Shown: positions 23,773 to 51,561 of the stretch, one piece after another
Layout: each line of letters opens with the position of its first letter
Numbering within the stretch: position 1 is the stretch's first letter
Assembly: GCA_046263085.1 (NCBI GenBank)
Contig: JBHELK010000119.1
Span: forward strand, 18,109-82,108
Direction of reading: 5' to 3'
Length of the DNA: 64,000 bases
Source of the DNA: Actinomycetota bacterium
GTDB lineage: Bacteria; Actinomycetota; UBA4738; JACQTL01
Program-made: the position numbers and the translations under genes
The notes under the pieces: generated by a model
Databases searched by the model: none
The model's input: the letters and a program-made list of their open reading frames with translations, nothing else
Told to the model about the DNA's origin: nothing

Positions 23773-23851
23773 GAGCGGCCATCGTCGCCGAGGGGCTCGT
23801 GTCCGTCAATCTCCTTGACCAGATTTCGAAGTGGCGTAATGAATGCGGGCG

Positions 23852-28175: not shown

Positions 28176-28233
28176 CGATCGAATCTCCTCGTGAAGGGGT
28201 CCGGCCATTGTGGCCCGTGGGCCGGGTGGATGC

Positions 28234-29730
28234 TCAGCCCGTGACGCACTGAGCCTCGTACCCGGGCGGAACGGGGTTCCGGGCACAGGGGTTCGGGGGG
28301 TCGAAGAGCAGCGCGTCCCCGAGGTTCGAGTTCCCCTCCAGGAACCCGATCTTCGAGACGTCGGCGGCCCCTTCACCCGTGTAGCGCAGGATGTACAGCC
28401 CGTTGCGCACGTCGACCACGTAGATCAGCCCGTCCTTGATCACCGGGTAGGACCACATGACGACCTTGTCCTGCCCGGCCGACAGCGCAGGGTCCTCCTG
28501 CAGGACGGCGGGCAGCGGGTCGGGCGAGTACACCCCGGTCTGGATCGGATGCGTGGGGTCCTTCAGCGAGATGGCCTGGAGCCCGCCGGAATGCCAGGTG
28601 ATGAAAGCGAGGTCCGGCGTGAGTGTTGGGTTGTGCGACGCCCAGCTCGACGACACGCGTGGGGGGTCGGTGGTGCAGAAGTTCGGATCGTTCTGGGGCA
28701 GCTTGTACTCCGCCACCACCTTCGGCTTGGTCGGGTCGGAGATGTCGATCATCCGCACCCATCCCCACGGACAGCCGTGGCCGCCACCGTTCACGGCCTG
28801 AAGCAGCACCCCGTACACCTCGTCGGTGACGAGCGCGTACGGCTGGCCGTAGAGCTTGATCGCGCTGTGGGCGCCGGGTCCCGGCCAGCTCACGCGGTTC
28901 GCCGCCGGCGTGACCAGCCGCGTGCGCGGGCTGGCGACGTCGTTGATGTACTCCGAGGTGTCGGTGACGAAGAAACCGCCGGTGAGATGGGCCATGTACC
29001 CGCGGAACCCGTCGTTGGACAGGGAAAGGGAGTGGAGGTTGCCGGAGGGGACCATCCTCGACTGCGAGCCCAGCTCACGGAAGGTGCCCTGACGGGCTCC
29101 CGAGATGTCGGTGACGAGCAGACGCCCGGTCGCCGGGGAGGAGATGAACATCAGCGCGCGGTCGGGGATGAACGGGTCCGCCCACAGGTAGAACTCGTGC
29201 GGGCTCGCCGACGGCATGTACGTCGACACGAGCTTGGGAGCCGCGGCGTTGGCCCCGGAGATGTCGTAGAAGCGGAAGTTGTCGTTGACGATCCGCGGCG
29301 AGCACTCGTGGATGATGTCGCTGCAGTTGGACCCCAGGTTCTCGACGATCAGCAGGTTCTGCTGGGGCCAGATGCGGAGCTCTCGCGACGTCTCTCCCTC
29401 ATTGGCCTCGTTCGGAGGCCCGATCTCGTTGACCACGTGCGGTGACGCCGGGTCGGAGACGTCCACGACCATGACGCCAGCGTGATTCAGGTTGAGGGTC
29501 GTCCCCCACGGCTTCGCGTCGGTCCGGCTGCCCACGTAGGCGTAGTTGCCCTTCACGGCGAGCGCCGCGTTCATGCCGCGGTTCATGAGCGGCACGTGGC
29601 CCACGAGCTGGAAGTTTTGGGCAAGCTCGAGCGGGCCGAGGTGGACGGGCGACGTCGGGGCTGGAACCGCAGGGAGAGCTAGGGCGAGCACCGTGACCAG
29701 GGCCGGCAGGAACAGCCGTCGAAGCGCCAT
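28234..29730 (-). CDS. Secreted beta-propeller protein with LVIVD-type repeats
   Basis: Signal peptide [25 protein letters not shown]. Repeated hhVVDVSDPxxP / hLVTDISG / [10 protein letters not shown] blades match the LVIVD repeat (PF08309). The upstream ORF extension was trimmed. Confidence 0.75.
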
Positions 29731-29786
29731 GCCTCTCTGGTTCGCTGCCGGCTTCCCCTTTCCTTCCGGCGCTCGCGACCGTCTGT

Positions 29787-29800
29787 TGTGCAGGTGCACA
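29787..29800. promoter_or_regulatory. Palindromic putative operator, site 1: TGTGCAGGTGCACA
   Basis: Perfect inverted repeat in the divergent intergenic region, 57 nt upstream of the minus-strand gene start at 29730 and 109 nt upstream of the plus-strand gene start at 29909. Confidence 0.6.
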
Positions 29801-29829
29801 GTTCTGCGCCACACGAACACTCGCTGACT

Positions 29830-29843
29830 TGTGCATGTGCACA
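29830..29843. promoter_or_regulatory. Palindromic putative operator, site 2: TGTGCATGTGCACA
   Basis: Second perfect copy lies 43 bp from site 1 in the same divergent promoter region. Confidence 0.6.
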
Positions 29844-29908
29844 GAGGAATGCGCACTTCGCTCCGCGTAGTCCATCTCGAGACATCCATCCGCCATACAG
29901 GAGAGACC

Positions 29909-31597
29909 ATGCGCGCACGTCTGTTCGCCACCCTCGCCGTATCCGTCCTGGCCGCCCTGCTCGCCATCCCGTCAGGGACCGTGTCCGCCAGCAGCTCCGG
30001 GAACGCCGTCGTGTCCTCCACCGGGGACATCCGGTTCGTGGCCAACATCCCCTATCCGGTGGGAACCGACGAGGAGTTCGCCACGTTCAACGTGACGAAG
30101 CTCTCGAACGGCGCCACCGGCGACCCGGTCTGCCAGACGAACCCGGACGGCTCGTGCGCGACCGACGCGGCCGGGAAGATCGTCTACCAGACCGAGGACC
30201 GCGACTTCGCTTTCGTGGGAAGCGAGAGCGTGAACGGGTTCGTCATCGACATCACCGACCCGGAGAACCCCGTCTCTGTGGCGTCCCTGCCCTGCAGGGC
30301 AAGCCAGAACGACATCCAGATCTGGCACAACATCCTGCTGCAGTCCCAGGACGGCACGGGCGGGACGTGCCACAAGCCGTCCGGCGGGACGCAGACCCAG
30401 GTCACGATCGGCTTCTCCGACATCTCCGACCCCCGCAACCCCAGGTTCCTGGGCAAGCTCACCGAGGCGCGCGGCGCCCACAACGCCACGGTGCACCCCA
30501 CCCAGCCCATCGTCTACATCTCAAACTCCGATCTTCCGTCGACGTCCGACGTGATCCACATCTGGGACTTCAGCAACCCGGCCGCGCCGGTCAAGGTCAA
30601 GGACTGGAACCCCACCTCGGGCTCGGTGTTCTCCCCCCACGACATCACGTTCAACGCCTCCGGGACGAGGGCATACGTCGCCTCCGTCGATCACACCGAG
30701 ATCCTCGATAGCACGGACCCGAAGAACCCCACCTTGATCTCCACGATCTACAACGAGGGAGTGTCGATCTCCCACCAGTCCGACCCCACCCCCGACGGCA
30801 AGTTCCTGCTGGTCTCCGACGAGCTGGGAGGCGGCGGCGCACCCACGGTCTCCCCCGGTGGGAGCGTCCACGTCTACGACATCCGCAACGAGCTGCGCCC
30901 GGTGAAGGTGGGACTCATCAACGAGGACCTCACCGGGGCCGGCCACGTGTCCACCGCGCACGTCTTCCGGATCAACCCGGACGGCCGGACCATGGCCATC
31001 GCCTGGTACCAGGACGGAGTGCACGTGTTCGACTTCTCCGACATCCACGGGCCCAACCTGTACGGCTCCGGGAACGCGACCGGCGTGGGGGCGCGGACCA
31101 TCGCCTCGATCCTGATGCAGAACGCCAACACATGGTCCGCCAAGATGTGGCAGGACCGCCACCCCGGCTACGTGTTCGCCAATGACATCAACCGCGGCTT
31201 CGACGTCTTCTACGTGCCGGAGCTCGGCCCCGGCTTCCTCTCCACCGGGACGATCCACGCGCCCATCGCGGACGGCCAGGCGCCCAGCCTCACCGAGATC
31301 GAGTTCCAGACCCGCTGCGAGTACTCCCCCGTCTCCCAGGGTCTCGACGGCTACGTGTTCGACCTTCGCGGAACCGGTGACGGCAACCACACCAACTCGG
31401 TGAAGGGCACGTCGGCGGCAGCGCACAACCTGGACCTGACCTTCTACGACGCCGCGTGCAAGCTGCTCACCGGCAAGAACCTGACCGCCGGGAACGACCC
31501 GTCGGGGACCATCCCGGCAGGAGCGAAGTACGCGGTGGCCGACCTGGTGGGTGGGGCCCAGACACGCTTCGTGGCCACCACCGCGGTGGCCGCCTAG
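29909..31597 (+). CDS. Secreted beta-propeller protein (LVIVD-like repeats)
   Basis: Start at MRARLFATLAVSVLAALLAIPSG (signal peptide) with a CAGGAGAGACC RBS. Blades such as FVIDITDPENP, IHIWDFSNPAAP and VHVYDIRNELRP are recognisable. Confidence 0.7.
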   Translation: MRARLFATLAVSVLAALLAIPSGTVSASSSGNAVVSSTGDIRFVANIPYPVGTDEEFATFNVTKLSNGATGDPVCQTNPDGSCATDAAGKIVYQTEDRDFAFVGSESVNGFVIDITDPENPVSVASLPCRASQNDIQIWHNILLQSQDGTGGTCHKPSGGTQTQVTIGFSDISDPRNPRFLGKLTEARGAHNATVHPTQPIVYISNSDLPSTSDVIHIWDFSNPAAPVKVKDWNPTSGSVFSPHDITFNASGTRAYVASVDHTEILDSTDPKNPTLISTIYNEGVSISHQSDPTPDGKFLLVSDELGGGGAPTVSPGGSVHVYDIRNELRPVKVGLINEDLTGAGHVSTAHVFRINPDGRTMAIAWYQDGVHVFDFSDIHGPNLYGSGNATGVGARTIASILMQNANTWSAKMWQDRHPGYVFANDINRGFDVFYVPELGPGFLSTGTIHAPIADGQAPSLTEIEFQTRCEYSPVSQGLDGYVFDLRGTGDGNHTNSVKGTSAAAHNLDLTFYDAACKLLTGKNLTAGNDPSGTIPAGAKYAVADLVGGAQTRFVATTAVAA

Positions 31598-32839
31598 ATG
31601 CGCCGCCGCGTCGCTGCGATCGCCTTCGCCGTCGCCGCTGTCGTGAGCGGCCCCGTCGCGGGCACGACGATCCCGGCCGAAGCGGGAGCCGGACAGTACT
31701 TCGATCTCTCGGCGCTCCCCGGTCCGGACTTCACGGGGGCACAGATCTGGCAGGGCCACCAGGACTTCATCAACGCGCACCCCTACCGTGTGACCGGCAC
31801 GGCGATGGAGGTCGTGACCGGCATGGATCTCCGTGACGACATGAGGGCCCTGGGCTACGACACACACATCCATTCGCTGCCGGCCGACCCGGGCGTCGAC
31901 GCAGGGCCGGGCGTCGCGCTGAAGGCCATCATCGCCACGAAGCGCGGCGTCACGAAGCCCGACGAATGGATCGTGTTCACCGGCCACTACGACAGCGTGC
32001 CGCAGACGATCTACGGCGCGTACGACAACGGCTCCGGCACGAACCTGCTGCGCTACCTGGCCCGGGAGTTCGCGAACGTCCAGACCAACCGCTCCCTCGT
32101 CTTCGTGTGGTTCAACGGCGAGGAGGAGGGCGTGCTGGCGTCGTCCCGGTACGCCAAGGAGCTGAGCGACGCCGGTCAGAAGATCGTGGCCGACCTCGGT
32201 TTCGACATGGAAGGCATCGCCTACCCGGTGGCCAACCCCGGATCCACGAACTGCCTCTGCATGTGGTACGGCGGCAACGACAAGACGGCGTTCGACCCCC
32301 TGCTGCGCTACGTGAACTTCTCGTTCCTCGGTCTCCCGAATTCCAAGAGGCTCGTATCGGTGGAGGGGATCAACAACCGCAACTCCGATGAGTCCTCGTT
32401 TGCCTCGAATGGCTTTCCCACGATGCGATGGGCGGGCATGCGAACGGCCGCGGCCTACCCCGCGTACCACATGTACAACGACACCCTCGACGAGATCGTG
32501 ACCGTGGCGGGCGGTGCGAGCTACGTCGAGCAGGGCATCGAGAACACGATGAAGAGCGCCTATTACACGGCGCTCGCCCTGGACAATCACCTCCCGGTGC
32601 CGGCGGCAACGGCGACCACGAACGGCCTCAGCATCCAGCTCGACGCCACGGGCAGCTCGGACGAGGACGGCACGCTCTCCACGTTCAGCTGGGACTTCGG
32701 CGACGGCACCGCGGGTACGGGCTCCGCCGTGCAACACACGTACGCGGCGGCCGGGACCTACACCGTGACGCTCAGCGTGGCAGACAACCTGTGGCCCACC
32801 GTGACGCAGGGCCTGACCCTGCAGGTGACGGTGGCCTGA
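31598..32839 (+). CDS. Secreted M28 family zinc aminopeptidase with C-terminal PKD domain
   Basis: FTGHYDSV, DNGSGT and NGEEEG are M28 zinc-ligand motifs. A C-terminal PKD-like segment (FSWDFGDGTAGTGSAVQHTYAAAGTYTVTLSV) follows. The ATG immediately follows the upstream TAG stop. Confidence 0.8.
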   Translation: MRRRVAAIAFAVAAVVSGPVAGTTIPAEAGAGQYFDLSALPGPDFTGAQIWQGHQDFINAHPYRVTGTAMEVVTGMDLRDDMRALGYDTHIHSLPADPGVDAGPGVALKAIIATKRGVTKPDEWIVFTGHYDSVPQTIYGAYDNGSGTNLLRYLAREFANVQTNRSLVFVWFNGEEEGVLASSRYAKELSDAGQKIVADLGFDMEGIAYPVANPGSTNCLCMWYGGNDKTAFDPLLRYVNFSFLGLPNSKRLVSVEGINNRNSDESSFASNGFPTMRWAGMRTAAAYPAYHMYNDTLDEIVTVAGGASYVEQGIENTMKSAYYTALALDNHLPVPAATATTNGLSIQLDATGSSDEDGTLSTFSWDFGDGTAGTGSAVQHTYAAAGTYTVTLSVADNLWPTVTQGLTLQVTVA

Positions 32840-32894
32840 CCGGTCCGGCGATCGGTCCAGACCGCCCTCTGATCACGAGGGAGGGAGCCAGGCG

Positions 32895-33818
32895 ATGAGC
32901 GGTCCGGGGTCTGCGGCTGGGACTGACACGATGCGGGCGGTCAGGGTGCATCCCCCCGGCGGCCTTGACGGGGTGCGGCTCGAACGGATCGAGATCCCCC
33001 GGCCCGGAGAGGGCCAGGCGCTCGTGCGTGTGCATGCCGCGGCGATCACCCGCGACGAGCTGGGGTGGCCCGTCGACCGCCTGCCCGCGATCCCATCGTA
33101 CGAGCTCTCCGGGGTGGTCGTGGACGTAGTCGGCGGCGAAGATCTCGTGACCGTCGGGGACGACGTGTACGGGCTCGTTCCCTTCAACCGTGACGGCGCC
33201 GCGGCCGAGTACGCCGTCGTTCCGGCGAACGCGCTGGCGCCGAAGCCTAAGGGGCTCGACCACGTGGAAGCCTCCGCCCTGCCCCTGGCCGCCCTCAGCG
33301 CCTGGCAGGGACTGGTCGTGCACGGTGGGCTCCAGGACGGTCATCGTGTGCTCATCCACGGCGCGGGCGGCGGCGTCGGTCACCTGGCGGTGCAGCTCGC
33401 CCGCCACCGCGGCTCGCACGTGACCGGAACGGCGTCACCCGCCACGGCGGGCCTGGCGCACGAGGTCGGCACACACGAGGTCGTCGATCGCACGAAGGAC
33501 GGGTGGGAGGAGTCCATACAGCCGGTGGACCTCGTCTTCGACACGGTGGGCGGCGAGGTGCTGGCTCGGTCGGCGGGCTTCCTCCGCGACGGCGGCCGGG
33601 TGGTGTCGGTTGCCGAGCCCGGGGGCACGGACGTCGTGTACTTCGTGGTCGAACCGGATCGAGATCAGCTCATGGAGTTCGCCCGCCTCGCCGACCGGGG
33701 GGACCTCCGCCCGGCCATCGACTCCGTGTTTCCGCTCGTCGAGGCTCGCGAGGCCTTCGCGCGGAGCATGGCGCCCGCGAAGCATGGCAAGGTGGTCATG
33801 CGTGTCGTGGACGCGTAG
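32895..33818 (+). CDS. Zinc-independent quinone oxidoreductase / MDR superfamily NAD(P)H-dependent reductase
   Basis: GAGGGVGHLAVQLA cofactor motif in an MDR fold. There is no signal peptide. GAGGGAGGGAG RBS. It lies downstream of the M28 gene in the same orientation. Confidence 0.8.
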   Translation: MSGPGSAAGTDTMRAVRVHPPGGLDGVRLERIEIPRPGEGQALVRVHAAAITRDELGWPVDRLPAIPSYELSGVVVDVVGGEDLVTVGDDVYGLVPFNRDGAAAEYAVVPANALAPKPKGLDHVEASALPLAALSAWQGLVVHGGLQDGHRVLIHGAGGGVGHLAVQLARHRGSHVTGTASPATAGLAHEVGTHEVVDRTKDGWEESIQPVDLVFDTVGGEVLARSAGFLRDGGRVVSVAEPGGTDVVYFVVEPDRDQLMEFARLADRGDLRPAIDSVFPLVEAREAFARSMAPAKHGKVVMRVVDA

Positions 33819-33827
33819 CCAGGAACA

Positions 33828-33843
33828 GAAGGCCTCGGCCTTC
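33828..33843. terminator. Hairpin GAAGGCC-TC-GGCCTTC between convergent genes
   Basis: 7-bp perfect stem read from the sequence. It sits between the oxidoreductase stop (33818) and the minus-strand gene stop (33881). Confidence 0.4.
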
Positions 33844-33880
33844 CGCGAGCCGCGGGCCGCGGGCCGCGGGCCGCGGGCGG
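33843..33880. repeat. Heptanucleotide tandem repeat (CCGCGGG)x4-5
   Basis: CCGCGAG CCGCGGG CCGCGGG CCGCGGG CCGCGGG read directly. It is intergenic, immediately 3' of the minus-strand propeller gene. Confidence 0.7.
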
Positions 33881-35017
33881 TTAACCGCTCGAGGGGATCG
33901 GACCGGTGTACTGGAAGATGTCGAAGCTCCGCTGGTAGTCCGTGGCGTACATGATCCGGTCGGTGATCCAGTAGACCCCTGAGGTCATCCCGCCCGCCGG
34001 CACGTACCAGCCCAGCTCCTCGATCTGGCCGTCGGCCTTCACGTTCAGGATCCGCACACCGTGCTCGTAATACGCCATGGCCACGAGACCGCCATCGCGA
34101 TACGCGGGGTGCGTGTCGAACCAGTGGGCGCACCACTGGGCGACAGGCGGGAACTCACCGTCGGTCGGCGAGCCGCTGCTCAGGCCCCACTCCGCGATCT
34201 TCGTGAACTCGCCCTGTTTGATCATGCGGCCGTTCTCGTCGTACGTCGGCCAACCGTTCGTGGCGTCGAAGGTCCAGAACTTCGCGGCGGGCTTGTTGCA
34301 GTCGCTCGGCACGGTGTTGCCGACCTCACCCCCCACGAGCAGGAACTTGTCGGTCCCCTGGTGCGGCCACAGGTTGCCGTGCGTGAACTTGTTCTGCCGA
34401 GGCCCCTGACCGATCAGCACCGGGTGCTCCGGATCGTCTCGGGCGTCGAGCAGCAGGACCGGATCGGTCGACGTCACGATGATTCCCGGCTTGATCTCGG
34501 TGACGTCGTGCGAGTTGGTCACCGGAGTGCCCGTCGTCCACCGGTGCGTCGACGTCACGGGGTGCGCCGGATCGCGCAGGTCCACGATCACACCGTTCGA
34601 CGCGTACGCCCACGTGCAGTCCAGGACACACGTGATGGTGTGGGACGACCTCCCGTGCGTGGAGATGACCTTCGGGTTGGCCTTGTCGGTGACGTCGATG
34701 ACACTGTCGTCGATCAGCAGGATCTTCCCGTTCGTGTCGACGTCCTCCTGGGCGAACTGCGGCGTCTGCTGGAAGGGAAGGACGCCGGTCAGCTTGGGGT
34801 TCAGCGGATCCTTGATGTCGTAGATCATGAGTGCCGTCGACGTCGTGAGGTAGAACCAGTCGCCCAGGCGCCTGGCGCCAGCTGAGTCGCTGTTCAGCGG
34901 GACGGTCGTCACCCACTCGACGTTCTTGCCGAACCCGACGGCGTCGGCCGTGGGCGCGACCGAGAGTCCGGAGATCGCGAAGATCAGGAGGCACGCCAGA
35001 ACGAGCGCTTTTTTCAA
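33881..35017 (-). CDS. Secreted beta-propeller protein (LVIVD-like)
   Basis: TTG start at 35017, preceded by AGGAGGATCTCGG. This yields the signal peptide (M)KKALVLACLLIFAISGLSVAPTADA. Blades include IYDIKDPLNP, VIDVTDKANP, IVDLRDPAHP and LLDARDDPEHP. Confidence 0.7.
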   Translation of the reverse strand: MKKALVLACLLIFAISGLSVAPTADAVGFGKNVEWVTTVPLNSDSAGARRLGDWFYLTTSTALMIYDIKDPLNPKLTGVLPFQQTPQFAQEDVDTNGKILLIDDSVIDVTDKANPKVISTHGRSSHTITCVLDCTWAYASNGVIVDLRDPAHPVTSTHRWTTGTPVTNSHDVTEIKPGIIVTSTDPVLLLDARDDPEHPVLIGQGPRQNKFTHGNLWPHQGTDKFLLVGGEVGNTVPSDCNKPAAKFWTFDATNGWPTYDENGRMIKQGEFTKIAEWGLSSGSPTDGEFPPVAQWCAHWFDTHPAYRDGGLVAMAYYEHGVRILNVKADGQIEELGWYVPAGGMTSGVYWITDRIMYATDYQRSFDIFQYTGPIPSSG

Positions 35018-35028
35018 CCGAGATCCTC

Positions 35029-36435: not shown

Positions 36436-36521
36436 GGGAGTCCTCCTTGTTCGATGTCGATGAAGCTTCTGAGGGGCTGACCTATCGATTCGCAGGTGCG
36501 GGGCCGAATCCTCCCTGCCAT

Positions 36522-38609: not shown

Positions 38610-38628
38610 CTCATGCCTTCCTGTTCGA

Positions 38629-40683: not shown

Positions 40684-40710
40684 CTACGTTTCTCCTGTCG
40701 TCCTGGTCGT

Positions 40711-42279: not shown

Positions 42280-42288
42280 TCTCCGGTC

Positions 42289-43989: not shown

Positions 43990-45764
43990 CGGTCCGCCGG
44001 AGCCACGATCACGGATCCCTGCATAGACGTGTCGGTCGCCGACGACGTCGACGTATAGACCCACGTGCCGGACTCGTCCTCGAAATCAGCGGAGTGCGAC
44101 TTGCGCGGCGGAATGTCGCCGTTGGAGTTGATCTCGTCCCCCGGGAGGATGACCGAGCCCTCGGTCGTGACGACCACGGCCCGCTCTGCCGTTACGTTGT
44201 GGGGGACGGTGTCCTCGTTCACCCACAGGACCTTGACGTCGCGCGGGATCGTGATGACCTGCGGCACGAACTGACCGTCGATGATCTCCACGGTGTACGT
44301 GTCCGGCGTGTCCTGGACGAACGTGACCCGATAGACCGAGCCGTGGAAATCGGCGACGTACATGGCGCCGTCCGGTCCGAACACCACGTCGATGGGGGCG
44401 CCGCCCGTCATGAACGCCCGGGTCCAGGCCACGGTGCCGTCCTCGTTGAAGTGGACCTGTTGGATCTTGTGGCCGCTCGGCTCGGGAGGAACGGCGTTCG
44501 TGTTCCAGATGCTGCCCCACTCGGCCACGAAGAGGTCGCCGTCGTAGCGCTCCGGGAAGTCGTCGCCGCGCTCGAACGCGAGGCCGGACGTCCCGCTGTG
44601 CGCGCTGAGGAACTTGACGGGGCGCAGGATGTGGTCGATCGGAGTCCGAGGCGGAGCCGCTGGGCAGTGGCCGAACTTGGCGATCGTCGCCTCGTTCAGG
44701 TTGTCGTCCGGGTCGTAGATCTCGGGGTGCTCATGGCCACCCGACGGCTGCGGCCAGGCGTTGACGTGCTGGCCGTAGAGGCAGGACGGGAACCCCGCGT
44801 CGTCGATGACCGGGCCATAGATCGGGTTGCCCTGTGGGTCGGTACCGACGACGTGCTGGTCACAGATGTTGGTTCGGTACAGGGGCTCGTTGGAGGCGGG
44901 GTTGTCCGAGCCGTTCATCGGCGTGTAGAGCGAGCAGGGATCGCCGGGCTGGGTGTCGACGTCGTAGATGTTGCGGAAGCCCCGGGCGGCGAGGACCTCG
45001 TCGTCGTCCAGAACGCCGGGGTCGTCGTAGCCGTTGGCGTCGACGGTGACGTCCTTCAGCAGGTCGACGTCGCGCCACGCGGGATTGACGCGCAGGATCG
45101 ATCCCGTCCAGGGCTGGACCTCCTGGGTCGGGCATGCGAGCGGCGAGGCCGGCTCGGGCCCGCATTCGGTTCCGTCGTCGGTGGCACTGCCCGTCGCGAC
45201 GTACAGCATGCCGTCAGGGCCGAACACCATGCCGTTCGTCTGATGGCGGCCGTTCGGGATGTCCTTGAGGATCGTCGCTCGCGTCTCATACGTGCCGTCG
45301 CCATCCGCGTCGCGCAGCGCGAGGATGCTCCCCTTGTACGCGGTCGTGTCGTTGTCGGAGACGTACATCGTGCCGTCGGGCCCGAAGACCATCCCGATGA
45401 CCTGGCCGAAGCCGTCGGCGACCGGGATCGGAGCCCCGCCCGCCACCACGCCGTCGACCACGTCGAAGGAGTAGACGGCGCCGTTCGAGAGCGCCTGGGG
45501 CCCGTCGCCGGCTGCAACGCCCTGCACCGACGTGACGAAGAGCTTCCCGCCCGGTCCGAACGTGAGGCTGGTGGCGAGATCGCCCGGGGGAAGCTGGGCG
45601 AAGGTGGAGACGCCGAACCCGACCGGCGGAACGAGGGCCCCGGCCAGCTCGACGGGATCGTGGGCCTGGGCCGGTGCCTGGACGAGACCGGGACCGGCGA
45701 GGGTCACGAGGATCACGATCGCTCGGGCGAGTCCGCGAAACCGCGTGCGTCCGTTCCCCTTCAC
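43986..45764 (-). CDS. Secreted soluble glucose/sorbosone dehydrogenase-like (SGDH/PQQ-dependent-like) beta-propeller protein with C-terminal cupredoxin-like domain
   Basis: GTG start at 45764, preceded by GGGAGGAG. Signal peptide (M)KGNGRTRFRGLARAIVILVTLAGPGLVQAPAQA. Repeated GMVFGPDGTMYVSDND / GMVFGPDGMLYVATGS / VVFGPDGAMYVADFHG blades are typical of the GSDH family. The C-terminal ~110 aa have a plastocyanin-like pattern (VPHNVTA...), but the Cys ligand appears to be replaced. Confidence 0.7.
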   Translation of the reverse strand: MKGNGRTRFRGLARAIVILVTLAGPGLVQAPAQAHDPVELAGALVPPVGFGVSTFAQLPPGDLATSLTFGPGGKLFVTSVQGVAAGDGPQALSNGAVYSFDVVDGVVAGGAPIPVADGFGQVIGMVFGPDGTMYVSDNDTTAYKGSILALRDADGDGTYETRATILKDIPNGRHQTNGMVFGPDGMLYVATGSATDDGTECGPEPASPLACPTQEVQPWTGSILRVNPAWRDVDLLKDVTVDANGYDDPGVLDDDEVLAARGFRNIYDVDTQPGDPCSLYTPMNGSDNPASNEPLYRTNICDQHVVGTDPQGNPIYGPVIDDAGFPSCLYGQHVNAWPQPSGGHEHPEIYDPDDNLNEATIAKFGHCPAAPPRTPIDHILRPVKFLSAHSGTSGLAFERGDDFPERYDGDLFVAEWGSIWNTNAVPPEPSGHKIQQVHFNEDGTVAWTRAFMTGGAPIDVVFGPDGAMYVADFHGSVYRVTFVQDTPDTYTVEIIDGQFVPQVITIPRDVKVLWVNEDTVPHNVTAERAVVVTTEGSVILPGDEINSNGDIPPRKSHSADFEDESGTWVYTSTSSATDTSMQGSVIVAPADR

Positions 45765-45829
45765 GACGGGCTCCTCCCAAAGACACGACCGTCCCGGGGA
45801 CCTTTCGAGGGGAACGGGCCGGCTACCTT

Positions 45830-45843
45830 TGTGCAAGTGCACA
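45830..45843. promoter_or_regulatory. Palindromic putative operator, site 3: TGTGCAAGTGCACA (extended form TTGTGCA-AG-TGCACAA)
   Basis: Perfect 16-bp inverted repeat 66 nt upstream of the GTG at 45764. This GTG heads the apparent seven-gene minus-strand operon running 45764 to 33881. Confidence 0.6.
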
Positions 45844-45856
45844 AGCGAGGGCCGGC

Positions 45857-47491
45857 TCAGACCTGGATGGTGGTGACCCTCGTGGCGCAGTTCGCACCGA
45901 AGCAGGCCCTCGCCCACACGTCCCAGGACCCGGGACCGGGCGCGGACAGGACCCCGGCGAAGCGCCCGGTGGAGTCCGCGGTCGTGGTGACGGCGAACAT
46001 CACCTGGCCGAGCGGCGTCCCGGCCGGCGCGATCCCGATCGAGACCTGCCGATCCGGGATCCGGTAGGTGAACGACGTGTCGCTGCCTCCCCACGCCGCC
46101 TGGTCGGCCGTCACCGTTTCGGCACCGGGCGCGATCTGGTACCCGGTCTGGATCGTGGAGAGGTCGCCGGCGGGGCTCTGGTTCCTCGTCAGCACGGCCC
46201 CGGGCACGATCTCGGGCGTGGCGCCGAGCGGCACCTTCACACGGATCGTGTTCGTGGCGACGTCGAAGGAGCCGGTGAGCCAGGCCATGTGCGTACAGGT
46301 GCCGGCGGGGGGGACCGTCGTGTCGATGCACTCCCTGAGCTCGAAGGCATGGCCCGTATTGCCGACTCTGCCCTGAGGATCGGACCGGTCCGTTGCCGAT
46401 AGGTCCGACAGTTTCGCCTGCACCTGGAATTGTTTGCCGCCCGTCCGGAACGGGATCGTGTAGCGAACAGCTTCAGGGAAGCTGCCCGACTCGGGCAATC
46501 CCGTGACGTGCCACTCGAAGAAGACCGAGGGGATGGCGGGATCCGGCTGATAGGCGCTCGCGCCGACCAGGTCGACGCCCGTGTCCTGGGCAGTCTGAGC
46601 GGTGCCGGGCGCGTCACCCGCCGGATCCTGCGCGAGGGATACGGGCGACTCGCCCGCGAACACCGCGCCCCCGGACACGGAGACCTGCGACCCGGATGCG
46701 GTTGCGTTCAGCGAGGGTACCGATGTCGAGGACGACCCAGGCGCAAGGACGCGGACCACGCCGGCATGGCCTCCTCCCCCGGCAGTGCCGTGAACCTTGC
46801 AGTAGTAGAGGTAGACGCCCGGTTTCAGGAAGGTGTGGGAGTACGTCTCTCCCGGCTGCCAGCAGACCTGGGCCGCCGTGGGGCACTGCGGGCTGGAGTC
46901 CCAGGACCCGTCGCTGGCGGTGACGGAGTGCGCCACCTGGCCCGTGTTCCGCCACTCGACGGTGGTTCCCGCCGGTACGGTGAGGTCCTTCGGAGCGAAG
47001 AAGTTGTCTCCGGCGTTCACCTCGATGTCGCCGCCGGACTCCGGCACGGGGGCCGGCCGCGGCAGGATCTGCAGCGAGCCCGTCATGTACGGGTGGATCG
47101 TGCAGATGAACGTGTAGAGCCCTGGGGGCACCTGCTCGACGGGCACCGGGGCGCTCTGACTCACGCCGACGAGGTCGCTGATGAACCAGGGTTGCCCGTC
47201 CGGCCGATGTTCAAGTGACTCGAGGTTGTGAAGGTCACCGTCGAGATTGGTGTGAACCAGGCTGTCCCCCTCGACGATCTGCAGCGGCGGCAAGGGGGCG
47301 ATGTGCGTGTCCCCGGGTACGTACGTGTAGTTGTCGGTGAGGATCTGGTGCGTGGTGGTGTCGCTGCCGGTGGGACTCGAGACGACCGCCGCCGATCCCG
47401 GACCGCCCGCCCAGGCGCGGGCCGACGTCACCGCTCCGGGAACGCCGAGGGCGATCGCGAAGGCAACGACGAGCCGCAACGTCCTCACCAC
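45857..47491 (-). CDS. Secreted protein with two cupredoxin (type-1 blue copper) domains and the C-terminal 'ACFGxxCG' module
   Basis: GTG start at 47491 or 47488, preceded by GGGAGGTG. Signal peptide VVRTLRLVVAFAIALGVPGAVTSARAWA. First cupredoxin: H...YTFICTIHPYM (Cys-His-Met ligand spacing). Second: AHSVT...YLYYCKVHG. The C-terminus (QFQVQAKLSDLS...THMAWLTGSFD...RVKVPLGATPEIVPGAVL...ARACFGANCATRV) is homologous to the module in 36522 and 38629. Confidence 0.7.
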   Translation of the reverse strand: MVRTLRLVVAFAIALGVPGAVTSARAWAGGPGSAAVVSSPTGSDTTTHQILTDNYTYVPGDTHIAPLPPLQIVEGDSLVHTNLDGDLHNLESLEHRPDGQPWFISDLVGVSQSAPVPVEQVPPGLYTFICTIHPYMTGSLQILPRPAPVPESGGDIEVNAGDNFFAPKDLTVPAGTTVEWRNTGQVAHSVTASDGSWDSSPQCPTAAQVCWQPGETYSHTFLKPGVYLYYCKVHGTAGGGGHAGVVRVLAPGSSSTSVPSLNATASGSQVSVSGGAVFAGESPVSLAQDPAGDAPGTAQTAQDTGVDLVGASAYQPDPAIPSVFFEWHVTGLPESGSFPEAVRYTIPFRTGGKQFQVQAKLSDLSATDRSDPQGRVGNTGHAFELRECIDTTVPPAGTCTHMAWLTGSFDVATNTIRVKVPLGATPEIVPGAVLTRNQSPAGDLSTIQTGYQIAPGAETVTADQAAWGGSDTSFTYRIPDRQVSIGIAPAGTPLGQVMFAVTTTADSTGRFAGVLSAPGPGSWDVWARACFGANCATRVTTIQV

Positions 47492-49818
47492 GGGACACCT
47501 CCCTGGATCCTCGGATGCAGGACCACCTTGTTCGGGTCCCACGGGCTCGATCCCCGGCCCTGTTCGAGGATCGTGAAGTGCTCGCCGGTCACCCGTGTCG
47601 CGGTCCCGGTGACCTCGAAGTACGTGTAGGACGCGTTGTTGCCGTCCGTGGTCTCGAGGATGTTGTTCTTCGGGTCCGCGGTGAGCCGCACCACGTAGCG
47701 CCCGTCCCCATTCGCCGCGAAGTTGACGTAGTTGCCGACCCGCTGCCACCGGTAGACGTCCCCCCAGCCGCCCGAGAGCCCCACCATGCTCTGGGACCCG
47801 GACAGGCCGCACCCCGCGACCTTCGAGCTGTCGGTGCGCTGATCGAACGAGTACCAGTTTCCGAAGGACTCGTTCGCAGGGAAGTAGCCGATCTTGCGGC
47901 CCACCCCCGAGGAAGCCAGCGTGCCCGCAGTCGCGTCGGTGACCTTGAAGAGCTCCAGCTTGACGATGTCCTTGACGTGGAGGTGGGCGTGGGTCTCGTG
48001 CCACACCATCTCCCCGGCAGGGCGCGTCTCGAAGGCCGGGGTCTCTCCCGGTCGCTCGACGCACTGGAACGCCGGTCCCGGACCGGCGGTGGTGGCGTTG
48101 CCGTTCCAGTACGCGTCGAACTGACCGTGTCCGACGTTCGATAACCCGAAGGAGAACCGAAGGCAACGCGTGTGGGGGCTGTCCGGGTCCGGGCCATCGG
48201 AGATCAGCTCCTGGGTGGTGTTGTCGCCGAACGTCTCGTCCGGCGAACAGGACGCGGGGTGAACGCCGGCGACGTCGGCCGGGGGGTTCGCCGAGTCCGG
48301 CGCGAAGAAGGGGCCGTTCAGCGGATTCACCGGCGCTGCGAACCCGAGGTCGTACGGCGGGGTCGGCTGGAGGTCCGGGAGCAGCCGGCCGCTCGCGTCC
48401 GGGGCGAAGACGGGGATCTGCGCCTCGAGCTTCGCGCGCATCTGGAACCGGGTGGGGGCGTGCACCGAATACGGGTGCACCAGGATGTCGTAGACGCCCA
48501 CCGGCGGGTTCGCCGTGAAATCCTCCCGGTTGAAGGCGGTGGGATTCGTCGCATCCGTGTGCGCGGGCCCGCTCGGGGGCGTGACCCGGAACGCGAACCC
48601 GTCGCTCCGGGCGGGGACGTCGATGGCGATCCGCAGCCTCGCCGCTCCGGGGGTGTCCACCCTGAGCTTGTAGTCGAAGCATGGGGTGTTGTCGCAGCTC
48701 TGGATGTTGGCGTTGTTGGGCAGGTTGTTGGCGTAGGGGAGCTGGTCGCCGACCTTGCCGCCCGCCCAGAAGACGTAGCTGTCGCTCGCCCGGTCCGTGA
48801 GGCGGAGCGTGGCGACGAGGCCGTCGTCGACCCTCGTGACGCCGCCGAGGCTCCGGATGCCGCAGTTGGCGCCGAAGCAGGCCTTGGCGAAGACGTCGAA
48901 GCTCCCCGGCGCGAACCCGGCCGTGGAGATGGATCCGGAGAACGAGCCGTCGCCGGCGAGCGTCGCCGGGGTCGAGAAGTCGACGCCCGAGGGATCGGTC
49001 CCGGTCGGGCCGATGCCCAGCGTCACCTGCTTGGTCGGGATGGTGAAGGCATAGCTCGCGGACGACGGGTCGCCGAACGAGGCGGTGTCGTTCGCCGCGC
49101 CGACGAAGCCGAGCTGGACGCCGGCCATGATGAGGTTGAGGTCGTCGCTCGTGGCGTTGTTGCGCTCCAGCACCGCGCCGGGAACGAGTTGGGGCGCTGC
49201 GGGCGAGCCCATCGGGACGGAGACCGAGACCGTGGAATAGACGGTGTCGACGGAGCCGGTGAGCCACGCGAGGTGCTGACAGCTGGCGCTACCGGTTCCC
49301 ATGAAGTTCGGCATGCAGTTGCCGAGGAGCTCGTAGGCGCCGTCGATGTGACCGGACCCGCCCTGCGGATCCGTGGCCAGGTTCGAGAACTTGGCCTGAA
49401 CCTGGTACACGGCCTCGCCGGCCTTGAACGGGAAGGTCAGCCGAGTGGCCTCCGGGATCTGCCCGCTTGGCGGGATGCCCGCGAGCTGCCACTGCACGAG
49501 CAGCTGCGGCGTGTCCGGGTCGGGCACGGAGATGTCCGCGCCGATGAGGTCGATGCCGTGCTCGCCGGTGCCGTTGAAGTCACCGACGTTCGGCGTGACC
49601 TGGGCGTCGTTCCCGGGGTCGTCCGCCACCTCGACCGGCCGCTGGCCGCCGAAGACCGCCGACCCCGAGATGGCCATTTCGCCGGAGGTGGGCGTCCCGG
49701 ATACCGCCGTCACCGCGCTCGGTACCGTCGTCTTGTCGCCCGCATCGGCGGACACCGCCATCGCAGGCACGAGTCCCAGCAGCGTGAACGGCACGACGAG
49801 CAGGACGAGCTTCCGCAT
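47485..49818 (-). CDS. Secreted protein: N-terminal 'ACFGxxCG' module fused to a C-terminal domain with a lysyl-oxidase-like His-rich copper motif
   Basis: ATG at 49818 with a GGAGGT RBS. Signal peptide MRKLVLLVVPFTLLGLVPAMAVSADA. The N-terminal half (VYQVQAKFSNLATDP...CQHLAWLTGSVDT...VSVPMGSPAAPQLVPGAVL...FAKACFGANCGI) matches the shared module. The C-terminal half contains MVWHETHAHLHVKD, which resembles the WEWHSCHQHYH copper site of lysyl oxidase. That assignment is tentative. The stop overlaps the downstream start (GTGGTGA). Confidence 0.6.
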   Translation of the reverse strand: MRKLVLLVVPFTLLGLVPAMAVSADAGDKTTVPSAVTAVSGTPTSGEMAISGSAVFGGQRPVEVADDPGNDAQVTPNVGDFNGTGEHGIDLIGADISVPDPDTPQLLVQWQLAGIPPSGQIPEATRLTFPFKAGEAVYQVQAKFSNLATDPQGGSGHIDGAYELLGNCMPNFMGTGSASCQHLAWLTGSVDTVYSTVSVSVPMGSPAAPQLVPGAVLERNNATSDDLNLIMAGVQLGFVGAANDTASFGDPSSASYAFTIPTKQVTLGIGPTGTDPSGVDFSTPATLAGDGSFSGSISTAGFAPGSFDVFAKACFGANCGIRSLGGVTRVDDGLVATLRLTDRASDSYVFWAGGKVGDQLPYANNLPNNANIQSCDNTPCFDYKLRVDTPGAARLRIAIDVPARSDGFAFRVTPPSGPAHTDATNPTAFNREDFTANPPVGVYDILVHPYSVHAPTRFQMRAKLEAQIPVFAPDASGRLLPDLQPTPPYDLGFAAPVNPLNGPFFAPDSANPPADVAGVHPASCSPDETFGDNTTQELISDGPDPDSPHTRCLRFSFGLSNVGHGQFDAYWNGNATTAGPGPAFQCVERPGETPAFETRPAGEMVWHETHAHLHVKDIVKLELFKVTDATAGTLASSGVGRKIGYFPANESFGNWYSFDQRTDSSKVAGCGLSGSQSMVGLSGGWGDVYRWQRVGNYVNFAANGDGRYVVRLTADPKNNILETTDGNNASYTYFEVTGTATRVTGEHFTILEQGRGSSPWDPNKVVLHPRIQGGVPW

Positions 49819-49871
49819 CGGCAAGGACCTCCGGTTGGATGAAGACATTCGACGCGGGCACCCAGCGACCT

Positions 49872-49887
49872 TTGTGCATCGGCACAA
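49872..49887. promoter_or_regulatory. Palindromic putative operator, site 4: TTGTGCA-TC-GGCACAA (one mismatch from the perfect palindrome)
   Basis: Located in the divergent region, 54 nt upstream of the ATG at 49818 (minus strand) and about 90 nt upstream of the S8 protease ATG at 49978. Confidence 0.55.
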
Positions 49888-49977
49888 CGGAAAGAAGGAG
49901 TGCTGCCGGGGCAATCGACGGATGTCCGTGCGCCGCCAGGAGGATTCGGCCCGTCCCTCGCGAAGAAAGTGGAAGAC

Positions 49978-51561
49978 ATGACTGCTCCGACACGCCCATC
50001 CCTGTTCCGGGTGGCCGCCGTGCTGTTCGCCCTGTACGTCGGCGTCGCGGGCCCGGTGCCGGCCGGATCGGCCCACGCCGGCCGAGGGATCGCTCGCTCG
50101 ACAGGCGCCGGCTTCGTGGACCCCACCCTGATCCGAGAGGTGGCAACGGGCCTCCCTGCCACGGTCCTGATCGGTTTCGACGAGCGCCGGACGACCGGCC
50201 CCCAGCTGGTCTCGTACCTGCGCGACCAGGGGATCTCCGCGCAGTCGTTCGAGCGGCTTCCGGTGGCCTACGCATGCGCCGGGTCCCTCGCCACGCTGCG
50301 GACCCTGGCCAGCGCCCCCGGAACGCGCTCCCTCTACGCCGACGCCCAGCTCGAGACGGCGCTCGACAAGAGCGTCCCGACCGCCATGAACGGCGATCCG
50401 CACAACGTGTGGGACGGCCTCGGCATCACGGGCAAGGGCGTGGGTCTCGCGGTCATCGACACCGGGGTCGATGCGACGCACCCCGACCTCCAGTACGGCC
50501 TGCGGACCAAGCTGAACGTCCGGGTCATCGTGGGGCACCGCGACCTGCTGCCGCCGCCGGCCGACCCCTGCGTGCAGGACACGTACACGGCGTCCCTGCA
50601 GGACAGCGAGATCAGCAGCGGCCACGGGACCCATATGGCGAGCGTGGCGGCCGGCGACGGCACGGTCTCGGGCGGCCGCTACACCGGTGTGGCACCCGAG
50701 GCGACCATCATGGGCGTGGCCATCGACGACACGGTCACGCCGAACGTCCGCACCGATGCCACGGGGACCCCGACGGGTCTCTCACTCTTCGGGGCCATCG
50801 CCGGCCTCAACTACGTCGCGCTGAACGGGATCCAGGACGGTGTCAGCCCCGCGATCATGCAGGTCAAGGTGATCCTGGCGGGATGGGTCCAGCACGGGCT
50901 GTACGACCCGTGGCACCCCATGGCCCTCGCGATCCACGACATGTCCGAGCTCGGGATCATCACCGTGTTCCCCGCCGGGAACGACGGCTCGGACACGAGC
51001 GACTGCTCCACGGCCGACACCTGTCACTTCAACATGTGGGGCGCCTCACCCGACGCGGTGACGGTCGCGGCCACGCCGAAGACCTCGCGGACGATCCTCG
51101 AGAGCTACTCCTCCCGCGGCGATCCCCTGGAGCGCACGTTCCACGACGCCACCTTCCGGTACTGGCCCCTCGTGTCGGCACCGGGCACCAACGTGGTCGC
51201 GGCCCGGAGGCCGGGCATCGCGCCCTTCCTGCAGCCGCCGGGATCGTTCCTCGGCGCCCACGGCGACGGCTCCGTGGGCCTCGACCGCCGCTACGTCGCC
51301 CTCACCGGCACCAGCGTGTCGGCGGCGCACGTGGCGGGGGCGGTGGCCCTCATGCAGCAGGCCGCCGTGCAGGCCAAGGGGTGCTACCTCACGACAGCGC
51401 AGGTCAGGGACATCCTGGGGTCCACGGCCACGTCGATGCCGGGCTACGCGCAGTGGCAGGTGGGCCGGGGCGACGTGAATATCACCGCAGCGGTCCTCTC
51501 GGCCCGCTCGGCCCCCGCCATCCACAACCCCGAACCGTGGATGTGCCCGGGCTCGGCATAA
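49978..51561 (+). CDS. Secreted subtilisin-like serine protease (peptidase S8)
   Basis: Catalytic triad motifs AVIDTGVD (Asp), SGHGTHMAS (His) and LTGTSVSAAHVAGAVAL (Ser). Start trimmed to MTAPTRPSLFRVAAVLFALYVGVAG (signal peptide). Confidence 0.85.
   Translation: MTAPTRPSLFRVAAVLFALYVGVAGPVPAGSAHAGRGIARSTGAGFVDPTLIREVATGLPATVLIGFDERRTTGPQLVSYLRDQGISAQSFERLPVAYACAGSLATLRTLASAPGTRSLYADAQLETALDKSVPTAMNGDPHNVWDGLGITGKGVGLAVIDTGVDATHPDLQYGLRTKLNVRVIVGHRDLLPPPADPCVQDTYTASLQDSEISSGHGTHMASVAAGDGTVSGGRYTGVAPEATIMGVAIDDTVTPNVRTDATGTPTGLSLFGAIAGLNYVALNGIQDGVSPAIMQVKVILAGWVQHGLYDPWHPMALAIHDMSELGIITVFPAGNDGSDTSDCSTADTCHFNMWGASPDAVTVAATPKTSRTILESYSSRGDPLERTFHDATFRYWPLVSAPGTNVVAARRPGIAPFLQPPGSFLGAHGDGSVGLDRRYVALTGTSVSAAHVAGAVALMQQAAVQAKGCYLTTAQVRDILGSTATSMPGYAQWQVGRGDVNITAAVLSARSAPAIHNPEPWMCPGSA

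Follow-up and report, generated by a model that had tools for sequence, protein, structure and literature searches.

We examined a 64,000-nucleotide stretch of an Actinomycetota genome (hereafter the window), in which positions 28234-51561 carry 14 genes (G1 to G14 by position, Table 1), as determined from codon-position GC content and open reading frame (ORF) analysis. Eight of these genes encode secreted LVIVD-type beta-propellers, which, judged by sequence, are all homologues of the haloalkylphosphorus hydrolase Sb-PTE of Sphingobium sp. TCM1 and keep the pattern of its binuclear-metal ligands. We give about an even chance to the reading that the cluster is a co-regulated, surface-retained small regulon, in which Sb-PTE-type metallohydrolase paralogues are combined with an oxidoreductase module (a lysyl-oxidase (LOX)-like protein, a blue copper protein and an SGDH-like propeller) and with two peptidases, as opposed to a single copper pathway. 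The original prediction was of an extracellular, possibly copper-dependent system; we did find an extracytoplasmic set that appears co-regulated, with a shared palindrome and a shared protein module (domX), but credible copper sites are predicted in G12 and G13 only.

The propellers and the phosphotriesterase Sb-PTE

All-against-all BLAST divided the propellers into family A (G5, G6, G7 and G8) and family B (G2, G9 and G10), with G1 standing alone. Among solved proteins, the sequence of G7 and a profile of 27 family A sequences matched solely Sb-PTE (PDB 5HRM/5IOJ; phmmer and profile search). Structure prediction followed by Foldseek, a check suggested along with the original prediction and carried out for G7, led to the same protein: with the AlphaFold2 model (predicted local distance difference test score 85.5, predicted TM-score 0.85) the nearest PDB fold was the seven-bladed propeller 5HRM (E 3.4e-12, TM 0.54 on target), and the generic WD40 propellers that followed had E 3e-8 or worse, four orders of magnitude behind.

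As the Sb-PTE reference we used a 583-amino-acid (aa) homologue, 97% identical, from a Sphingobium plasmid. We took the binuclear manganese ligands of Sb-PTE to be E201, H258, H317, H389, E407 and H475, as reportedly described by Mabanglo et al. in 2016, and its disulfides to be C146-C242, C411-C443 and C542-C559; the assumed residue types were present at 12/12 of these ligand and Cys positions in the 97%-identical homologue, which corroborates both the assumed residues and their numbering. The register between Sb-PTE and the propellers was taken from the BLAST alignment of G1, from a nine-sequence L-INS-i (MAFFT) alignment of Sb-PTE with all eight paralogues, and from counting of blades. Pairwise global alignments to Sb-PTE were unstable and were set aside, as was an hhalign alignment of family A with Sb-PTE that lay one blade out of register.

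G1 aligned with the Sb-PTE-like protein over 431 columns (blastp, 80 bits, 25% identity), pairing E201 with E113, H317 with H233, H389 with H288, E407 with E304, C411 with C320 and C443 with C352. H178 of G1 lay beside H258 in the blastp alignment and was aligned to it by MAFFT, and the sixth ligand, H475, met a His in both alignments, which was H381 in blastp and H366 in MAFFT. In the nine-sequence alignment, the columns of H258, H317 and H475 held His in all eight paralogues, that of H389 did so in four, with the other four shifted by one column, and that of E407 held Glu in 7/8. The E201 column held Glu in G1 and was matched by an adjacent acidic ENED motif in family A; an Asp was found 2-3 residues off in G2 and G9, and there was no acidic residue in G10. 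His was present at all four His-ligand columns in G2, and the ligand columns were also kept in G6. Within family A, E98, D99, H148, H191, H241 and H317 (G7 numbering) were invariant in 51 sequences, with E259 at ≥90%, and the G5 residues E91, D92, H126, H170, H213 and H298 were invariant in the 27-sequence family alignment. Family B showed four invariant histidines in 40 sequences (H162, H201, H250 and H327, G9 numbering), which align to H258, H317, H389 and H475 of Sb-PTE, respectively. Blade counting placed Sb-PTE and G7 in the same register, each with seven 'xIxDvsdPxxP' motifs, with the ligands at the start of strand A in blades 2 to 6 and 18 residues separating the third His from the second carboxylate.

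Because the binuclear-metal ligand pattern of Sb-PTE is kept, the propellers are probably metal-dependent hydrolases rather than inert binding proteins, and ester-type substrates would be the most likely ones. The propellers had been presented as members of a repeat family without an assigned function, which is true of the Pfam and NCBIfam annotation, but leaves out their homology to a binuclear-manganese phosphotriesterase and the retention of its ligands. Sb-PTE itself scored 16.2 bits in Pfam LVIVD (PF08309), under the threshold, which is perhaps the reason why the link goes unannotated, and, judged by their titles, none of 29 papers mentioning LVIVD appears to concern it. Eight paralogues and ~90 relatives are thus tied to a phosphotriesterase metal centre, which provides a testable enzymatic hypothesis for LVIVD. 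Separately, Sb-PTE homologues (95-97% identity over a 67-aa query) were present on six sphingomonad plasmids (predicted mobility: three conjugative, one mobilizable, two non-mobilizable), where they are annotated merely as 'hypothetical protein'; on one conjugative plasmid (L088, NZ_CP022749.1 18111-19862) the homologue adjoins an IS6100 transposase.

The number of propellers had been put at 'at least nine'; a paralogous set exists, but it counts eight members, and no ninth paralogue was detected elsewhere in the window by tblastn. Five members are at or above the Pfam LVIVD gathering cut-off of 20.2 bits (whole-protein scores: G1 31.8, G7 24.9, G8 20.2 and hence exactly at the cut-off, G9 29.4, G10 39.2). 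G2, G5 and G6 had no Pfam LVIVD match even at E 0.1, and they are counted as members solely through BLAST homology to their paralogues G9, G7 and G8 (blastp E 4e-35 for G2-G9, 7e-74 for G5-G8 and 2e-48 for G6-G8). Weak matches to TIGR04312 (choice-of-anchor B) were seen in most of the eight, the one in G2 reaching 54 bits, below cut-off, whereas G6 and G7 had none; G9 also matched Big_3_5 and CarboxypepD_reg below cut-off. The two proposed tandem duplications are genuine by BLAST (G7/G8 64% identity, G9/G10 45%). Tandem duplication of G7-type genes was also seen in another locus (L085, 2-472 and 534-2615), and is probable for G9-type genes elsewhere (P0279 and P0345 on one 7657-bp contig), mirroring the G7/G8 and G9/G10 pairs.

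The lysyl-oxidase-like protein, its copper partners and domX

The lysyl-oxidase-like protein described in the original prediction by its His motif is G13, which scored 17.5 bits (E 0.0033) with Pfam Lysyl_oxidase (PF01186), under the gathering threshold of 20.4 bits; because of this score we call it LOX-like and do not count it as a Pfam member. A single-sequence phmmer search of the PDB gave no match, and a profile and hhalign were needed. A word-indexed search found 14 relatives at E 1e-5 or better, and a 13-sequence profile aligned to the human LOX catalytic domain with a probability of 89.9% and E 1.7e-6 (hhalign), pairing WHETHAHLH with WHSCHQHYH, GRK(642)IGY with GHKASF, and GWGDVY(689) with GCYDTY. 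The copper histidines (WHxxHxHxH) and the Lys and Tyr of the lysine tyrosylquinone (LTQ) cofactor, K642 and Y689, are invariant in the 13 homologues, and LOXL2 (5ZE3) ranked first, weakly (E 0.044), in a PDB profile search with the G13 family. By these alignments G13 carries a divergent lysyl-oxidase catalytic domain with its predicted copper and LTQ residues intact.

The portion comprising the middle and LOX-like domains (~420 aa) was found at 75 loci among GTDB species representatives, with hosts in Acidimicrobiales, Frankiales, Solirubrobacterales, Chloroflexia and gammaproteobacteria. HxxHxHxH is present in 65/68 and GWGDxY in 68/68 members of this wider family. Cultured hosts of the ~420-aa protein are Actinospongicola halichondriae, Stagnimonas aquatica, Sinimarinibacterium spp., Solimonas spp. 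and Zhongshania antarctica (L032, L039, L043, L045, L055, L056, L065), which makes the family experimentally accessible.

G12 had been predicted to hold two cupredoxins, and both were found: domain 2 matched Pfam Copper-bind (46.6 bits) with H, C and H ligands present, and domain 1 has no Pfam match, yet its H...C-x-x-H-x-x-M pattern (H...CTIHPYM) is conserved in the relatives at L084, L001 and L003. Weak matches to amicyanin, plastocyanin and halocyanin were also seen. At the usual axial Met position, domain 2 of G12 (46770-47020; residues ~157-240) and its close homologues have a His (GGGGHAG), and the fused relatives P0004 and P0009 have Met; domain 2 of G12 could therefore be an unusual type-1 site. 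The SGDH-like propeller G11 was recovered as described, with matches to Pfam DUF7133 (54.8 bits, cut-off 27), GSDH (30.5 bits, cut-off 25) and TIGR02604, but its cupredoxin-like tail matched Cupredoxin_1 and Copper-bind below cut-off and is not a type-1 copper site, since it has no Cys ligand. Its 'RHQTNG...FGPDGMLYV' stretch presumably resembles the catalytic-His motif of sGDH.

In other genomes these genes recur in varying combinations. The closest relative (L084, 64% identity) has S8 (-), LOX-like and G12-like genes in the order of the window, including the 7-nt overlap. A LOX-like gene is followed by a G12-like gene in L001 and L002, with the 7-nt overlap also in L001. In L003 and L004 a short LOX-like gene precedes one encoding a fusion of a G12-type cupredoxin with a G11-like propeller, so that the L003 homologue of G11 has its type-1 cupredoxin N-terminally; in L010 and L012 the short LOX-like gene precedes a sequence that matches just the G12 cupredoxin, and in L012 this match is partial and at the contig end. 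Cupredoxin, domX and LOX are fused in one chain in P0004, P0009 and L009. A G14-like S8 gene is divergent from a G11-like gene in L087, and both L084 and L087 retain the divergent S8 arrangement; scanning metagenomes with G11 yielded one locus only. Because of this repeated adjacency or fusion, LOX-like, type-1 cupredoxin, SGDH-like and S8 genes form a recurrent, variable module, and in the close G13 clade a type-1 cupredoxin is always adjacent or fused, an SGDH-like propeller and an S8 protease often being present too.

The blue copper protein G12 is likely to be the electron partner within this module, with G13 acting as a LOX-like copper/LTQ amine oxidase and G11 as an SGDH-like dehydrogenase that would both pass electrons to it. 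For the prokaryotic LOX, which have been called functionally 'cryptic' (PMC6452851), the pairing points to a new architecture and to a physiological partner for electron transfer. Genes for an extracytoplasmic function (ECF) sigma factor and then a zf-HC2 anti-sigma-like or DUF4349 protein were noted downstream of the LOX-like/cupredoxin-SGDH pair (L003, 13085-14327), and the ECF sigma gene set also directly follows solitary G7-type genes (L005 12140-13745, L086 9254-10862); such genes near the homologues may form a second regulatory layer.

In agreement with the original prediction, 13 of the 14 N-termini resembled signal peptides and G4 was the single cytoplasmic protein, a quinone-oxidoreductase-like one. 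The call was made with our own heuristic (basic n-region, hydrophobic core and cleavage site), not with SignalP: the 13 N-termini have 2-5 K/R and a hydrophobic core (10-residue Kyte-Doolittle mean 2.2-3.4), and 12 of them an AxA-like cleavage site, the exception being G1. No further transmembrane segment or LPXTG tail was found in the 13 secreted proteins, and no SLH or other recognised anchoring signal among the cluster proteins. G4, without signal peptide, matched Pfam ADH_zinc_N_2, ADH_zinc_N and ADH_N, and TIGR02824 at 149 bits, below cut-off. Pfam also bore out the two predicted peptidases, an M28 aminopeptidase with a PKD domain (G3; Peptidase_M28 89.9 bits, PKD_4 72 bits) and an S8 subtilase (G14; Peptidase_S8 108.9 bits, with the D, H and S motifs VIDTGVD, HGTHMAS and GTSVSAAH present).

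Four of the proteins share domX, a module of ~290 aa (35-41% identity) that is C-terminal in G7, G8 and G12 and N-terminal in G13, with two probable disulfides and several invariant acidic residues. It matched no Pfam family. A profile search of 1.84 billion representatives gave 502 clusters at E 1e-3 or better, most of them standalone secreted proteins of ~310 aa, and others fused to LVIVD, BNR, PQQ_2, SBBP, PD40, PA or DUF11 domains. The module looks like a DOMON/CBM9-like sandwich plus an Ig-like domain, a likeness at the fold level only. DomX may bind glycan rather than heme, and a binding or retention role is the more likely one since many unrelated catalytic domains carry the module; it probably keeps G7, G8, G12 and G13 at the cell surface, held on the cell wall or another glycan surface of a monoderm cell.

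Surface retention would also fit a coat, in which the propellers and domX proteins form an S-layer-like structure that is cross-linked by the LOX-like enzyme via lysine-derived aldehydes and matured by the peptidases. LOX chemistry cross-links matrix proteins, domX is mostly found as a standalone secreted protein, and the palindrome described below suggests co-regulation of LOX and propellers. LVIVD repeats, defined in 2004, were first described in archaeal and bacterial cell-surface proteins (PMC2447325), and a prokaryotic LOX oxidises lysine-containing polypeptides (PMC6452851). We nevertheless regard a coat as unlikely, since invariant catalytic-type residues are unexpected in purely structural propellers, the wider LOX-like family is solitary and lacks such partners, SLH, LPXTG or other known anchoring signals were not found, and the cupredoxin and SGDH-like partners would be left unexplained. 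LOX enzymes normally use O2. The domX fold and the tethered cupredoxin could also be read as an electron-harvesting system, with G13 an LTQ-type amine dehydrogenase instead of an O2-dependent oxidase, passing electrons to the blue copper protein beside an SGDH-like sugar dehydrogenase, held at the wall by a DOMON-like and perhaps heme-binding module and co-regulated with Sb-PTE-type hydrolases that supply its substrates; we think this quite unlikely.

A shared palindrome and the case for one regulon

When the intergenic regions between divergent S8 and LOX-like genes were aligned for the window, L084 and L087, the palindrome TTGTGCA-NN-TGCACAA (7-2-7, 16 bp) emerged. The window contains five matches at ≤2 mismatches, compared with 0.96 expected and with 0/100 shuffles reaching five, and 4/5 lie in three promoter regions (Table 1). 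In 1.32 Mb of other loci there were 11 matches at ≤1 mismatch, nine of which (seven distinct sequences) are 35-85 nt upstream of homologues of the cluster genes. They precede LOX-like genes in L003/L004, L009, L010 and L084, solitary G7-type genes in L005/L006 and L086, and the S8/G11-like pair of L087; a copy with two mismatches occupies the same position in L001 and L002. A protein-binding DNA site is favoured over an RNA hairpin because the palindrome shows no covariation; an Rfam search gave no matching family, and a literature search with the palindrome sequence gave nothing relevant. It is probably the operator of a regulator. The operators of Rex, CRP/FNR, CsoR, Zur, IdeR and LexA were considered and set aside, as none of them is known to have the 7-2-7 TTGTGCA/TGCACAA geometry. 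The sole transcription factor gene among ten other window ORFs scanned encodes a MarR-family protein (23332-23805, -), beside the PGI and malate dehydrogenase genes; nothing links MarR to the palindrome, and we do not propose it as the regulator.

The cluster probably comprises five transcription units, each preceded by the palindrome: G1, G2-G3(-G4), G11 to G5, G13-G12, and G14, with G4 possibly co-transcribed with G2-G3. The seven minus-strand genes originally predicted to form one long operon, G11 to G5, are indeed tightly spaced or overlapping (-4, 9, 27, 19, 86 and 11 nt, including the G11/G10 ATGA), but the same-strand run extends over nine genes (G13 to G5), and probably consists of two units, given the control palindrome within the 92 nt between G12 and G11. 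A sigma-70 promoter scan was negative, and no minus-strand terminator-like site was found between 49818 and 33881.

One co-regulated extracytoplasmic set is suggested by the palindrome at all five units and at dispersed homologues and by domX being common to four proteins; the palindrome is our strongest evidence that propellers and copper/quinone module would share one regulon, although they are not syntenic. The same observations, namely an operator common to all units, domX in propellers, cupredoxin protein and LOX-like protein alike, and the tight spacing with no minus-strand terminator-like site, would also be expected if a single dedicated, copper-dependent redox machine operated outside the cell, with the LVIVD propellers as its non-catalytic scaffold or substrate-binding subunits. 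This is rather unlikely in our view, as the propellers appear to have retained their own complete metal site of catalytic type, G7-type genes stand alone among housekeeping genes in other genomes, and copper sites are credible in G12 and G13 only, the G11 tail lacking Cys.

In relatives, the LOX-like/cupredoxin/SGDH-like/S8 module is found apart from the propeller genes, and G7-type genes elsewhere either stand by themselves among housekeeping genes or occur as tandem duplicates (L005, L007, L085, L086). The proposal that the architecture is undescribed held, in that no annotated or characterised equivalent was found and NCBI labels the products 'hypothetical' or 'LVIVD repeat-containing', whereas a conserved architecture was not borne out by the synteny check, the 14-gene order not being seen elsewhere. 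That unique order, the evident tandem duplication (the window pairs and L085), a GC content slightly below that of the distal flanks and a DUF222/HNH gene 2 kb to the left could mean that there is no system at all, only unrelated secreted-protein genes that accumulated by chance or by duplication in a variable, possibly horizontally acquired region. We find this very unlikely given a palindrome that marks every promoter region and recurs ahead of dispersed homologues, repeatedly adjacent or fused LOX, cupredoxin, S8 and SGDH-like genes, and homologues that all come from the same Actinomycetota lineages. The region had been thought to resemble an accessory insertion, which is possible but not shown by the window: there is no tRNA in the window, no bounding direct repeat around the cluster and no integrase among the genes scanned, the GC content at third codon positions in the cluster is like that of neighbouring genes, and the mild GC dip (0.66-0.69) starts at ~23 kb, already inside the malate and isocitrate dehydrogenase genes of the left flank.

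Several observations weigh against a co-regulated set of metallohydrolases and oxidoreductases. None of the other contigs examined shows synteny with the cluster as a whole; the wider LOX-like family lacks conserved neighbours (neighbour clustering, 68 loci), with no partner outside the close clade; and no palindrome precedes the G7-type genes of L007 and L085 or one standalone domX gene. The agreement in residue type at 12 positions is the sole corroboration of the Sb-PTE ligands used here, and the ligand correspondence in families A and B comes from sequence alignment and blade register, where pairwise methods at times slip by one blade. G10 lacks an equivalent of E407, with Tyr and an adjacent Asp instead. 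For domX, Foldseek against the PDB gave nothing significant, and its match is one of fold level only.

If the regulon exists as we read it, the S8 and M28 peptidases would belong to the same co-regulated secreted set as the propellers and the oxidoreductase module, and the regulon would most plausibly serve to scavenge and process organic matter outside the cell. All components are members of known families or resemble them; what is new is the functional lead for the LVIVD propellers, the pairing and fusion of LOX with cupredoxin, the DOMON-like module and the regulon palindrome, which is also a handle on the regulator and its inducing signal. The 14-gene architecture is lineage-specific, and 'copper system' describes part of the cluster only.

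Gene map, flanks and comparison with known systems

Genes were called from third-codon-position GC and frame plots together with ORF analysis and inspection of N-termini; raw ORF lists were crowded with false frames because of the G+C content of the window (~70%).

Table 1. Coordinates of the cluster genes and of the palindrome copies
Feature	Position	Strand	Length	Description
G1	28234..29730	-	498 aa	secreted seven-blade propeller; paralogue nearest Sb-PTE
G2	29909..31597	+	562 aa	secreted family B propeller
G3	31598..32839	+	413 aa	secreted M28 aminopeptidase, C-terminal PKD domain; start codon directly abuts G2 stop
G4	32931..33818	+	295 aa	cytoplasmic MDR-family NAD(P)H quinone-oxidoreductase-like protein
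G5	33881..35017	-	378 aa	minimal secreted family A propeller
G6	35029..36435	-	468 aa	secreted family A propeller
G7	36522..38609	-	695 aa	family A propeller (~residues 35-395) and domX (395-695; 36525-37427)
G8	38629..40683	-	684 aa	family A propeller and domX (38632-39498); tandem paralogue of G7
G9	40711..42279	-	522 aa	family B propeller, C-terminal Ig-like domain
G10	42289..43989	-	566 aa	tandem paralogue of G9; ATGA overlap with G11 stop
G11	43986..45764	-	592 aa	secreted SGDH-like/DUF7133 propeller, cupredoxin-like tail without Cys ligand
G12	45857..47491	-	544 aa	two cupredoxin domains and domX (45860-46750); start overlaps G13 stop by 7 nt
G13	47485..49818	-	777 aa	domX (48820-49740), beta-sandwich middle domain and LOX-like catalytic domain (~residues 478-777)
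G14	49978..51561	+	527 aa	secreted S8 subtilase, divergent from G13
Palindrome, two copies, TTGTGCA-NN-TGCACAG	29786-29801, 29829-29844			divergent G1/G2 intergenic region; 56 nt upstream of G1 start, 65 nt upstream of G2 start
Perfect palindrome TTGTGCAAGTGCACAA	45829..45844			92-nt G12-G11 gap; 65 nt upstream of G11 start
Palindrome TTGTGCATCGGCACAA	49872..49887			divergent G13/G14 intergenic region; 54 nt upstream of G13; aligned in L084 and L087
Palindrome in other loci	L003 9915-9930; L005 9921-9936; L009 182-197; L010 1001-1016; L084 1778-1793; L086 7018-7033; L087 1954-1969			

NCBI locus tags include ABR600_13865 for G10 and ABR600_13880 for G13, with the labels 'hypothetical protein' or 'LVIVD repeat-containing protein'. 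G10 is given there as a longer product of 591 aa (P0335) from a GTG start at 44064 inside G11 (42289-44064, -); the ATG at 43989 seems the better start because of the N-terminal signal peptide and the ATGA stop/start overlap with G11. A scan of the flanks identified PGI, MarR, malate dehydrogenase, DUF222/HNH, epimerase and isocitrate dehydrogenase genes on the left, and citrate synthase, MTHFR, FolD and PurH genes on the right, consistent with the housekeeping content predicted for both sides. Genes of the tricarboxylic acid cycle are thus found on either side of the cluster (malate dehydrogenase 23852-24775, isocitrate dehydrogenase 27090-28376, citrate synthase 51671-52792). The DUF222 and HNH endonuclease gene (~25028-26119, +), of the actinobacterial '13E12-repeat' type, is flanked by the malate dehydrogenase and epimerase genes, lies ~2 kb to the left of the cluster and could be a selfish element.

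Of the known systems, Sb-PTE is the best PDB match of the cluster propellers by both structure and sequence, and shares with them seven blades built from LVIVD-like 'xIxDvsdPxxP' repeats, a ligand order of Glu, His, His, His+Glu and His on consecutive blades, and the 18-residue His-to-Glu spacing. The cluster propellers differ in being merely 13-25% identical, with a propeller 80-200 residues shorter, in the position of the first carboxylate within an ENED motif in family A, in the extra Ig-like or domX modules on some paralogues, and in their origin from Actinomycetota as opposed to sphingomonad plasmids. The families PF08309 and TIGR04312 cover the cluster in that five of the eight propellers reach the LVIVD gathering score, but both bear no functional annotation.

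G13 has in common with animal LOX/LOXL2 (5ZE3) and with prokaryotic LOX (Haloterrigena HTU-LOX) the LPDL and WHxxHxHxH motifs, the LTQ Lys and the LTQ Tyr (GxxDxY), and it is likewise predicted to be secreted; in contrast to these, it scores below the Pfam LOX threshold and has an N-terminal domX and a ~140-aa beta-sandwich. Type-1 cupredoxins accompany its clade as neighbours or fusion partners, in contrast to most prokaryotic LOX, which are reported to be single-domain (PMC4448552). The DOMON/CBM9-like sandwiches with which domX was compared include the C-terminal domains of glucodextranase, the EBDH gamma subunit, NxrC and the CDH/PDH cytochrome domains, and domX differs from these in having no sequence-level Pfam match and no evident conserved Met/His heme-ligand pair. 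G11 matches DUF7133, GSDH and TIGR02604 in the manner of the SGDH-like/DUF7133 'PVC-type heme-binding' dehydrogenase propellers, but has a degenerate cupredoxin-like tail in place of a cytochrome c domain. Finally, methylamine dehydrogenase is a quinoprotein amine dehydrogenase with tryptophan tryptophylquinone (TTQ) as cofactor and the cupredoxin amicyanin as electron acceptor, and by analogy the cluster also encodes a putative quinone-cofactor amine-oxidising enzyme beside a small blue copper protein; G13 is unrelated to it in fold and cofactor (TTQ versus a predicted LTQ), and electron transfer to G12 is a prediction.

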